Assembly: GCA_944377805.1 (NCBI GenBank)
Contig: CALWFZ010000005.1
Span: 50,697 to 114,696, forward strand
Direction of reading: 5' to 3'
Length of the DNA stretch: 64,000 nt
Origin: an uncultured Mediterraneibacter sp.
GTDB lineage: Bacteria > Bacillota > Clostridia > Lachnospirales > Lachnospiraceae
This document shows, piece after piece, positions 28,997 through 31,900 of the stretch; position 1 is the stretch's first letter; each line of letters starts with the position of its first letter. Below the pieces are notes generated by a model that was not told where the DNA came from, did no database searches, and saw only the letters and a list, made by a program, of their open reading frames with translations. The position numbers and the translations under genes are program-made.

Positions 28997-31900
28997 ATGA
29001 TGAAAAAACTAAAGATGCTAGCTGCCGCAACAGCATTTCTATGTGGAATTACTATAGGGAATATTCCGATCCACGCCGCGCAGGTGGAGAATTCGGTCAG
29101 TTCTGTGGATAAAGATATTATTCGCCGGGGAGAGATGGTTTCTGTCACCGTGGGACTTGGCGACCATAGCAATGTGGTGGATGGAATCAATTCGGTCAGA
29201 GGAACGCTTGAATATGATGAGAGCGTATTTCAGGAGATTGACTCTGAGGATATTACAGCCGTAAACGGATGGGAAAGCCTTCGGTATAATCCGGATAACT
29301 GCCGGTTTACGGCGGTGAAAAGATCCGGAACCACTGAGGCGGAGGACATTCTTACAATTCAATTTGTGGCAAAGGAGAACATATCTGCGGGAGATACCCG
29401 GATTGCAGTTACAAATCTGGAAGTATCTGAAGGAAAAGAAGACCTGTATCCTGCTGACTCGGAAGTGAATGTCTCTGTTGTAGCGCAGGCATCTCAGCCG
29501 GGCACTTCGGCAAACTCCGGAGACGGTACCTCCGGCGGATCCGGTAAGCAGTCGAACAGTGTAACGAGAGTTCCTCTTGCCGGCGACAGCTTCGTTCCGG
29601 CAGTACTCCTTATAGTGGCAGGAGGATCGGCTTTTACAGCTTTCTTTGTATACAAAAACAGAAAACGCCGGAAGTTCAGACATATTAGACTGATGACGGG
29701 AGCAGCCGTTGTCGGAGCTCTGGTATTTGCGGCTGCGGCAGGGGCGTACGCATTTGGTAACAAGGGAGATCTGAATGGAGACGGCTCTGTTGACTATGTA
29801 GATGTAAGGCTTCTTCAGGATCATCTGATCAATCTGAATTCCCTTTCTGAGGACAAGTGGAGCCTGGCCGATATGAACAGCGATAGAAAACTGACTGTGA
29901 CAGACCTGTCTCTTCTTGTTCAGATGGCTGAGAACAGAGTGAATTATCAGGTTGAACTGACTTCAGCGACTGAAAACTTTTATCCGCAGAAGAATGAAGA
30001 GGCTGAACTGAAGTTCACCGCAGACGTCGTTCCCGAAGCGGAGATCGAGAGTGTGGTTGTTGACGGAACAGAACTTGCGGTAGAGAGGGAGCTGTCTTCG
30101 TCTGTTTATACTGTGAAAGTAAACACAGGCGGAGAGGCAGGCGTTAAAGACTTCAGAATTACAGAGGTGGTGCTCTCAGGCGGACGCCGGGTGGACACAG
30201 ACTACACAGAAACGGTAGATGTGTTGAAAACACAGCCGGCCATTGAGAACTTCCGTGTAGAAGAGAGCGGAATTTCAGAGGACGTTAAAGTTATCTTTGA
30301 CCTCAGCGATGAAGACGGCGCGGTTACTTCCGGAACAGTGAGTCTCTCAGAGCGGGGGGAAGACAGCGACTCCCCGGTTGGCAGCCGGGATATTAAAAGC
30401 GGTGAAAACACGCTTGAACTTACTCTCGAAGAAGGCAAACTGTATGCGCTTGACTTTTACGCGGAATATGATCTGGATTCAGGGGAACTGACTGATCATG
30501 AAGAGGATCACAGCGGCAGTCTTGAACTGGAGAAAGAGATTCAGCTGAATCTGGATTATCAGTTTAAGTTTTCAGATCTGAAGACATACAGCGGGGATTT
30601 GGCTGAGACGGCAGTTTTTGGAAAGAACGAGCCGGTCGTAGTTCAGTTTGCAAGCTCCAACACGACGAAATATGTGCCGATACAGGCTGTGATAAACGGA
30701 GATACTTATCAGGTCACAGGGGAAGGAGAACGCTATACGGTACAGCTGGACGGATTTGATCAGTCCGGTGAGACGGAGATTAAACTCGAACAGATCATTT
30801 TGAGCAATGGAAAAGTATTTGACCTGACGGAGAACAATGCAGTCACGATTCGGGTTGAGAAGGAACGCCCGGAAGTTTCTGATGTGAAAATCACAGAAGA
30901 ACCGGCAAATTCCGAAATCCGCCTCTCCTTTGAAATAAAGGACAATGACGGAGTGCTCTCCGAAAAGCAGATTGTGATACTCAACGATAAGGGAGAGACG
31001 ATCGCGTCACAGGCATTTGAAGAGGATCTGTTTGACGCCGCAGTGAAAATACCGGATGATCTGTACACGAAGTATACGGTGCAGATTACGGCAGATTATG
31101 ATCTTTCCGGCACAGGGGAAGACGTTCAGAACGGGAAAGTGATCTACGAAAAGGAAATCGACGCTCTTGCGAGAGTCAAAGTCAGCGACAGCACTCTTTC
31201 CAACGAATCTGCAGAAAAGGGAGCGGCTGTCACAATCTCTTATACAATAGAGAGCAATGTTGCGCCGAGCATTGAAAAATTGGTTATCAATAATGTAGAA
31301 ACTCCGGTATCAGGCGTAAGCGGAAATGTCTATCAGGCAGAGGTGACGGCTCCGGAGAGCGCCGGCATGACAAATATCACGCTTTCTCAGATTGTGTTCG
31401 AGGATGGAACGACTGTAAATACCGAAATCACAGATGAGATCGAGGTTCTCAAATCCGCTCCTTCTGTGGAGAATACATCTGCGGAAGATGACTTTGACAA
31501 CAATCAGGTTCATGTGACATTTGAACTCGCTGATGCGGACGGGGCTTTTGTATCAGGAAGAGCAGAGCTGGTTAAGGACGGTACGGTAAAAGAGAAACAT
31601 GACATATCCAAAGCAGGTAAGAACACAGTTGATCTCGATGTGAAGGAAGATGAGGAATATGAGCTGAGAATTCTGGTAACCTATGAGCGCTCAGAAAAGG
31701 GTGGACATACGGTCGAGGATCAGACGTTAATGACGATGCCTATCCGGCTGGTACACGACTATGAGCTTTCAGTCGGCGATATCCAGACGCTGTCTTCATC
31801 AGGTGATCCGACGGTCTATTTTGAGAAAGGCGCGGACATCGCGGCGAAGATGGAAGTAGAGACAAATACAGGCCTTACAGCGTCATCAGTTCAGGTGAAC

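Follow-up and report, generated by a model that had tools for sequence, protein, structure and literature searches.

The 64,000 nucleotide stretch of an uncultured Mediterraneibacter sp. analysed here (positions 50,697 to 114,696 of contig CALWFZ010000005.1; hereafter the window) includes a gene at 28997..37687 whose product, judged from its sequence, is the precursor of a zinc metalloprotease of family M26 (IgA1 protease/Zmp-like) and has both a bona fide cohesin and a type I dockerin in the same chain. The two binding modules are separated by a hairpin of two predicted transmembrane (TM) segments, and we consider it probable (roughly 60 %) that this single precursor yields both an anchor and an enzyme, cleavage being followed by docking of one to the other in trans. 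The evidence was read from sequences and consists of the modules, their order and predicted topology, the protease family, the conservation of the arrangement, the homology of the second TM segment (TM2) to signal peptides, the existence of two-gene equivalents and a nearby sortase gene. The two cleavages, and the binding of the precursor's cohesin to its own dockerin, we infer.

Modules of the precursor

The features of the gene are as follows, given in window coordinates and in amino acid (aa) positions of the product, with a slash marking a predicted cleavage site; AF2 stands for AlphaFold2 and pLDDT for predicted local distance difference test.

28997..37687, + strand: whole precursor gene, a single open reading frame (ORF) of 2,896 aa
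28997..29077, + strand: signal peptide 1, aa 1–27, site IHA/A (hydropathy and sequence reading)
29078..29491, + strand: cohesin module, aa 28–165 (PF00963 match, AF2 model and Foldseek)
29492..29569, + strand: G/S/T-rich linker, aa 166–191, predicted to be disordered (AF2 pLDDT 25–31)
29570..29584, + strand: sorting-like motif V-P-L-A-G, aa 192–196, followed by D (sequence and relatives)
29591..29653, + strand: first TM segment (TM1), aa 199–219, putative stop-transfer or sorting-signal segment (peak hydropathy 2.14; AF2 helix 200–223)
29654..29692, + strand: basic loop KNRKRRKFRHIRL, aa 220–232, predicted to be cytoplasmic (net charge +8, over aa 220–233)
29693..29752, + strand: TM2, putative internal signal peptide, aa 233–252, ending A-Y-A, then F (hydropathy, AF2 and split-locus homology)
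29762..29929, + strand: type I dockerin with two Ca-binding repeats, aa 256–311 (PF00404)
29942..32251, + strand: four tandem modules of ~200 aa (boundaries VLKxxPxVEN at aa 409, 620, 817 and 1022)
32252–32989, + strand: beta-helix Peptidase_M26_N (Pfam)
32387..35752, + strand: M26 catalytic region, aa 1131–2252 (Pfam and alignment to solved enzymes)
34037–35752, + strand: Peptidase_M26_C (Pfam)
35114..35128, + strand: zinc-binding HETAH, aa 2040–2044 (alignment)
35864..37231, + strand: two more M26_N-like beta-helix modules (GTLDGNGHKM at aa 2388 and GELDGNGHTI at aa 2521)
37232..37684, + strand: acidic Ser/Glu/Pro-rich C-terminal tail without a hydrophobic anchor

The frame is uninterrupted, with no stops and no frameshifts. 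A hydropathy scan of all 2,896 aa found just three hydrophobic segments (aa 7–25, 198–220 and 229–254) and no C-terminal anchor. The first is the core of signal peptide 1, whose n-region (MMKKLK) has a charge of +3. The TM2 region, aa 233–253, reads MTGAAVVGALVFAAAAGAYA/F, and the predicted signal peptidase I site lies between 29752 and 29753 (A252/F253). The loop has a charge of +8 versus +1 and -2 for the outer flanks, and the hairpin with both ends outside that was proposed in an earlier reading of these letters (hereafter the sequence-only reading) thus fits the positive-inside rule. The tripartite layout it described, namely an LPXTG-like motif, a hydrophobic segment and a basic tail, is present in the translation as VPLAG, TM1 and the +8 loop, and every element that it listed was found at its position.

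The cohesin matches the Pfam Cohesin profile (PF00963) over aa 43–140 with 25.9 bits versus a gathering cut-off of 24.1 (E 1.3e-5, first 331 aa scanned alone). As this score is marginal, it was cross-checked using the scores of homologues, whose cohesin modules reach 31–39 bits, and a structure model. In a single-chain AF2 model of aa 1–330, built from an 8-sequence alignment, aa 40–140 form a beta-sandwich (pLDDT 75–87). The top 25 Protein Data Bank (PDB) matches of the cohesin model in Foldseek were all cohesins; Clostridium perfringens cohesin 2vo8 was found at E 9e-6 with a target-normalised template modelling score of 0.73, and the ScaE cohesin 2zf9 was also among the matches. The dockerin was identified by Pfam Dockerin_1 (PF00404) over aa 256–308, with 36.8 bits versus a cut-off of 22.9, and both modules thus exceed their gathering cut-offs. 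Its two repeats are DLNGDGSVDYVD and DMNSDRKLTVTD, and the second (ADMNSD..TVTDL.LL) is invariant in homologues that share 32–43 % identity overall with the window protein. Type I dockerins in the PDB gave weak sequence matches to it.

Behind the dockerin lie the ~200-aa tandem repeats, which are also present in homologues, and the protease proper. Peptidase_M26_N scored 165 bits versus a cut-off of 27.7, with matches in four stretches, and Peptidase_M26_C scored 101.9 bits versus 22. The catalytic region aligns over ~1,120 aa with the solved IgA1 proteases of Gemella haemolysans and Streptococcus pneumoniae (7uvk and 6xjb, E 1e-50 to 1e-54; for 7uvk, E 3e-54 over query residues 131–1250), and THETAHN...GAE aligns with THEMTHN...GPE of the G. 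haemolysans enzyme, so that the downstream Glu is matched as well. Pfam, Foldseek and hydropathy therefore bear out the modules named in the sequence-only reading (signal peptide, cohesin, second signal-peptide-like segment, dockerin and giant protease). Assignment as an orthologue of ZmpA or ZmpC was rejected; the NCBIfam scores of 210 and 169 bits are far below the cut-offs of 3000, which makes the protein a distant M26 member rather than the orthologue of any named Zmp. The substrate may be a host mucosal glycoprotein or an immunoglobulin, a guess that draws on the analogy to ZmpA and ZmpC.

Conservation of the single-frame layout

A scan of one genome per species yielded 72 loci, and in about 37 of them (L001–L036 and L045) a cohesin and a dockerin are encoded in one open frame of 2,000–3,500 aa. 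The layout is kept in at least 35 species-level genomes, assigned to Mediterraneibacter, Merdimonas, Eubacterium, 'Clostridium' and 'Bacilli' or 'Tenericutes' gut metagenome-assembled genomes (MAGs), down to 23–30 % identity. A whole-collection scan with the dockerin pattern ADMN[SD]D[GR]x[LI]T found one locus per Mediterraneibacter genome. When 1.84 billion cluster representatives (clusters at 50 % identity) were searched with HMMER, 52 clusters matched at E<=1e-30 and 319 at E<=1e-10, many of the matches being giants of 2,000–6,181 aa whose own N-terminus aligned to query residues ~20–330. Twelve matches were inspected (ten giants, P0013 and the 1,995-aa P0103), and all 12 start with a signal peptide, cohesin, TM segment, basic loop, TM segment, dockerin and repeats. 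Ten of these run on into an M26 catalytic domain with HExxH, and P0127 and P0103 end within the repeat region. P0013 is an independent full-length protein that is 93 % identical to the window protein.

The junction itself (codons 191–253) was compared with the two closest genomes. Relative to L001 (Candidatus Mediterraneibacter pullicola, 78 % identity) there are 22 synonymous and 12 non-synonymous changes with no indel and no stop, and relative to L002 (70 % identity) there are 25 synonymous and 19 non-synonymous changes and again no stop. These substitutions indicate that the junction is under purifying selection.

Two-gene relatives

The sequence-only reading had raised the possibility that relatives encode the two halves separately, and two-gene versions do occur. 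In about a dozen loci (L038–L044, L048, L050, L052, L054 and L059) the same parts are encoded by two adjacent genes. The upstream gene (e.g. L041 9890–10828) encodes an adaptor of ~310 aa made up of a signal peptide, a cohesin (31–34 bits with Pfam Cohesin), a linker, an X module and a C-terminal dockerin (25–29 bits with Dockerin_1). This dockerin, dockerin B, differs in sequence type from dockerin A of the enzyme and presumably plugs into another anchor. Neither a TM hairpin nor a sorting motif was found in the split-locus adaptors. The X module has the conserved sequence KYxIxxxYIxRIxPxTTVxxFKxNV...

Between the two genes are a stop codon, a ribosome-binding site and an ATG, and the enzyme gene starts with an ordinary signal peptide, e.g. 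MKDKMKKILKISICLIVFLILTLGAIYA/TN (site type ..IYA/). KGELNDDG, the first dockerin loop, follows within a few residues, then the repeats and the M26 enzyme. In the alignment, the signal peptide of the split enzymes occupies the TM2 columns, and TM2 is therefore homologous to a cleavable signal peptide. A small-x-small site (AYA/F, VYA/F, AWA/F, VHA/L or TFA/Q) is also present 3–8 residues ahead of the dockerin in nearly all fused forms. As the cohesin and the dockerin-bearing enzyme are kept together whether fused or split, a functional pair is indicated.

In a neighbour-joining tree, built without bootstrap from a repeat-rich region, the split loci fall into two groups among the fused lineages. 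This suggests that the fused state is old, the direction of change being insecure.

Proposed processing and display

In the route that we propose, signal peptide 1 would drive export of the cohesin via Sec, TM1 would halt transfer and leave the +8 loop in the cytoplasm, and TM2, acting as an internal signal peptide, would restart export, now of the 2,640-aa dockerin-protease. A cut by signal peptidase I after A-Y-A252 would then free the dockerin-protease; TM2 is taken as the cleavage point because it is homologous to the signal peptides of the split enzymes, with their small-x-small site. The cohesin piece would be retained on the cell by the TM1-loop-TM2 hairpin or, alternatively, would become covalently attached to the peptidoglycan after cleavage of VPLA/G by sortase B. 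Ca2+-dependent binding of the freed dockerin to the cohesin would result in a 1:1 anchor-enzyme pair at the surface, made from one gene.

The route via sortase can be weighed using the residues next to TM1, since in most clades xPx[TA]G or NV[KR][TA]GD lies directly ahead of it. The motifs found in relatives are:

P0013: VPLTGD
L001 and L002: IPLTGD
L003 and L004: NP[MI]TGD
L005, L007 and L009–L012: N[VI][KR][TA]GD
L015: LPQTG
L017–L031: canonical LPKTG

The sorting-like signal is internal, at aa 192–232 of 2,896, and not C-terminal, as is also the case in streptococcal M26 enzymes. No credible example of an ordinary C-terminal sorting signal was found in the window or in any of the 74 loci scanned. 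A sortase gene is present 24 kb downstream of the protease gene:

61884..62693, + strand: class B sortase gene, active-site VTLSTC (PF04203, 44.6 bits; TIGR03064, 184.8 bits versus a cut-off of 153.75)

It is a candidate for the enzyme that acts on the VPLAG motif. The single class B sortase of Clostridioides difficile is a housekeeping enzyme that cleaves (S/P)PXTG (PMC4155245). A 330-aa ORF on the opposite strand (61851..62843) overlaps the class B sortase gene.

Several points count against cleavage and re-docking, or against a part for sortase in it. In the AF2 model of aa 1–330 the dockerin is poorly modelled (pLDDT 40–56), and the cohesin protein of the split loci bears a second dockerin, which points to larger networks with partners that are possibly encoded elsewhere. 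The TIGR01167 (LPXTG anchor) profile gave 11.8 bits on aa 161–268, versus a cut-off of 15.9, and VPLAG is a Thr-to-Ala variant of the clade motif, Thr being found in close relatives. In 'Bacilli' and 'Tenericutes' MAGs (L014, L022, L030, L032 and L045) the motif is replaced by IKKT[TSN]K.Y with no Gly, and no motif was seen before TM1 in L013, L033 and L036 or beside TM1 in a distant subfamily (P0092, P0144, P0119 and others). Finally, SrtB from C. difficile failed to cleave NVQTG in vitro (PMC4155245), which makes the NV[KR]TG variants uncertain substrates. The sortase signal may have decayed in the five 'Bacilli' and 'Tenericutes' loci while the hairpin and both modules were kept. With a degenerate motif or none in several clades, sortase processing cannot be general. 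The hairpin and the pair of binding modules, in contrast, are universal. For the window protein, sortase processing is plausible.

Members of the distant subfamily (P0092, P0144, P0119, P0127, P0136, P0123, P0118 and P0103) share 24–30 % identity, reach 6,181 aa and include dozens of repeat modules. They keep the cohesin, hairpin and dockerin, and most have a conserved 'GESIPTN'-like stretch ~25 aa upstream of TM1.

Alternative explanations

The cohesin and the dockerin might each join a larger cellulosome- or mucinolysome-like network and not bind each other, their co-encoding reflecting co-regulation only. We regard this as unlikely, though the second, different dockerin in the split loci speaks for it and implies at least one further cohesin elsewhere in those genomes. 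Some genomes also have two or three M26 paralogues of the cohesin/dockerin type (L018 and L054, L044 and L050, L042 and L053), and gut-bacterial multi-scaffoldin systems with dockerin-bearing peptidases have been described (PMC12997984). However, the cohesin subtype is strictly adjacent or fused to the dockerin subtype across about 50 loci. The single locus per Mediterraneibacter genome in the whole-collection scan also speaks against such a network, as does the finding of only one site for the narrower motif G[DE][LIV]N[GDNS]D[GDNE] in the 64 kb window.

In the second alternative the hairpin would stay in the membrane uncleaved, with the cohesin and the dockerin-protease joined for good and both exposed on the outside, and the protein could latch intramolecularly or chain head-to-tail. 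This arrangement seems rather improbable. Its topology obeys the positive-inside rule, the hairpin is conserved even in clades without the sortase motif, and known proteins with both modules, such as scaffoldins, can self-associate. Amy4 of Ruminococcus bromii is another protein that carries a cohesin and a dockerin and is able to self-associate. Against this, TM2 aligns with the bona fide signal peptides of split enzymes and keeps the small-x-small site, and the mature enzyme of streptococcal relatives begins past the second TM segment. Moreover, a linker of ~26 aa and the hairpin would hold a 2,640-aa enzyme tight at the membrane, under the wall. Hence, separation followed by docking in trans is better supported than a permanently joined hairpin and is the best reading of the data.

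An artefact or accident, whether an assembly error, an overlooked stop or frameshift, or a newly arisen join between a scaffoldin gene and an enzyme gene, is extremely improbable. Frameshifts or stops near the junction in relatives L037, L046, L056, L053 and P0004 (locus L074) reveal that errors and pseudogenes do occur in this family, but the intact frame of the window recurs in about 37 independent assemblies, changes at the junction are more often synonymous than not, P0013 is full-length, and a cassette of signal peptide, LPXTG and two TM segments is normal for M26 enzymes. The recent fusion that the sequence-only reading had offered as an alternative is contradicted by the spread of the one-frame layout down to 23–30 % identity and over dozens of 50 % identity clusters, and the missed stop or frameshift that it had considered is excluded by the substitution pattern at the junction.

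Comparison with known systems

The cassette is a known signature of M26 enzymes, a point overlooked in the sequence-only reading. According to Bek-Thomsen et al. (PMC3518915), every streptococcal M26 Zmp combines a signal peptide with two predicted TM segments and an LPXTG whose N-terminal position is atypical; the second TM has been proposed as a further site for signal peptidase (PMC3518915). Residue 154, which lies past the TM segments, is given as the start of the mature pneumococcal enzyme (PMC7695701, PMC9637739), and knockout of sortase A depletes IgA1 protease and ZmpB (PMC13604702). Because streptococcal Zmps have the cassette in common, the appearance of a complete anchored protein fused to an enzyme is the family norm. 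The cassette itself has been published; what is new is that a cohesin precedes it and a dockerin follows it.

The window protein resembles the streptococcal and Gemella M26 enzymes (IgA1 protease/ZmpA, ZmpB, ZmpC and ZmpD) in the catalytic alignment of ~1,120 aa with HExxH and the downstream Glu, in its giant size, and in the repeat region ahead of the catalytic part. With the streptococcal enzymes it also shares the order of signal peptide, LPXTG-type motif, TM segment, basic loop and second TM segment with a putative signal-peptidase site. It differs in having a folded cohesin between the signal peptide and the motif, a type I dockerin right behind TM2, and two extra beta-helix modules at the C-terminal end. 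Though Gram-positive IgA1 proteases are described as sharing G5 (PMC9637739), no G5 match was found in a Pfam scan of the window protein. VPLAG and a nearby class B sortase gene stand in place of the LPNTG and SrtA of the pneumococcus.

Of the sortase-anchored single-cohesin scaffoldins, cSca5 (Limousia mucinolysome, PMC12997984) and ScaE (Ruminococcus flavefaciens, PDB 2zf9) are close parallels. As in these systems, the cohesin, linker and wall-sorting signal would constitute a cell-bound receptor, whose ligand is an enzyme bearing a signal peptide and a dockerin, and the fold and Pfam families match. In the cSca5 and ScaE systems, however, the genes are separate, there are many enzymes per scaffoldin and the cargo is a glycoside hydrolase, whereas in the window receptor and ligand are in one polypeptide, the sorting signal is internal, and there is one cohesin, one dockerin and an M26 protease as cargo. 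The gene is not classed as a cellulosome in the defining sense, that of several cohesins and many enzymes, on a view of 64 kb.

The split relatives have homologues of the cohesin, of dockerin A, of the repeats and of the M26 enzyme, with an unchanged gene order and with TM2 corresponding to the signal peptide of the enzyme, and differ in that their adaptor lacks the hairpin and sorting motif and ends in a dockerin of its own. Both modules are also found in one translation product in adaptor scaffoldins and in the cohesin-dockerin enzyme complexes of C. perfringens (PMC12997984). These, and Amy4, lack the inter-module signal-anchor hairpin and sorting motif that would separate the modules after export. 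In the literature that could be searched, no paper was found tying cohesin or dockerin to M26, Zmp or IgA1-protease, which is not proof of novelty; a single precursor for anchor and enzyme is apparently an undescribed twist on two known systems.

To our knowledge, how the N-terminally 'LPXTG-anchored' M26 virulence proteases are retained on the cell has never been satisfactorily explained. Sortase attaches the part upstream of its motif and not the enzyme. It is conceivable, though on balance doubtful, that the window gene, as a one-gene 'cut and re-dock' display device, also preserves the original logic of the N-terminal LPXTG in all M26 proteases. If so, the ancestral M26 precursor would have been an anchor-protein/enzyme pair in one chain, and the piece ahead of the sorting signal would have been a wall-bound receptor for the released enzyme. 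The N-termini of streptococcal IgA1 proteases and Zmps would then be reduced derivatives, the enzyme being held by an equivalent, still undefined non-covalent contact. As both halves of the window protein carry recognisable binding modules that can be assayed, the idea of cleavage and docking is directly testable, in one lineage, and the fused and split gene pairs amount to a natural experiment. Cohesin-dockerin biology would be extended to a single-copy, self-contained protease display in common gut Lachnospiraceae and Clostridia, and, as a possible tool, the cassette might serve as a compact natural module for stoichiometric display on Gram-positive cell surfaces.

Truncated and rearranged relatives

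A few members depart from both the fused and the split arrangement. In L037, L046 and L056 there are frameshifts within the cohesin or the linker. In L074 (3148–10182, P0004) the ORF for cohesin, hairpin and dockerin stops right after the dockerin and a 2,292-aa M26 ORF begins 8 nt on, the break being either a frameshift or stop, or a third mode of gene splitting. L073 (6001–6921, P0130) has a complete 306-aa ORF consisting of a signal peptide, cohesin, hairpin and dockerin alone, and is followed by a 43-aa ORF and then a serine recombinase gene. It looks like a remnant that has lost the enzyme part to a mobile element.

An M26 paralogue without a cohesin is found in L053 (1443–5735). It has a signal peptide, ~30 aa, 'LPRTRRN', a TM segment, KKK, TM2 and the dockerin, a layout that resembles the minimal streptococcal one, and there is an in-frame stop within TM2, for which mis-assembly, decay to a pseudogene or recoding may be responsible. 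The split locus L042 belongs to the same MAG. P0003 (515 aa) shares 70 % identity with the window cohesin over its first 165 aa and then turns abruptly into a polysaccharide-flippase-like membrane protein, probably because the metagenome contig is chimeric.

Gene context and expression signals

The protease gene is preceded by the lysyl-tRNA synthetase gene (26797..28746) and followed by an AAA ATPase gene (37721..39238), next to which is a Lon protease gene on the opposite strand. Two possible expression signals lie upstream:

28900..28928, + strand: promoter-like site TTGAAA-17-TAAAAT (10/12 matches; hit count not above shuffled expectation)
about 28986–28990, + strand: ribosome-binding site GGGAG (sequence reading)

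The first is at most suggestive. The second ATG, at 29000, is a possible alternative start, as in P0013. Translation restart at M233 was considered and rejected, the sequence upstream having just a weak AGACTG and no Shine-Dalgarno sequence. Nor is M233 a likely internal start on other grounds: there is no promoter-like site on the + strand within 29000–30000, and homologues have Ile or Leu in place of the Met. An antisense ORF of 261 aa (29039–29824, - strand) lies wholly within the region coding for the cohesin, hairpin and dockerin; most likely it merely results from the composition of the sense frame.

Elsewhere in the window, a run of three genes at 57203–61101 (+ strand) encodes a BspA-type leucine-rich-repeat protein, a DUF2201 VWA-like/metallopeptidase-like protein and an AAA (MoxR-like) ATPase, and lies upstream of a LUD-domain gene and the class B sortase gene. 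A 603-aa ORF at 54431–56242 (+ strand) includes an FtsX-like permease domain (aa 270–389) and a C-terminal phage-integrase fragment (aa 524–586), and is either an odd chimera or two genes read through.

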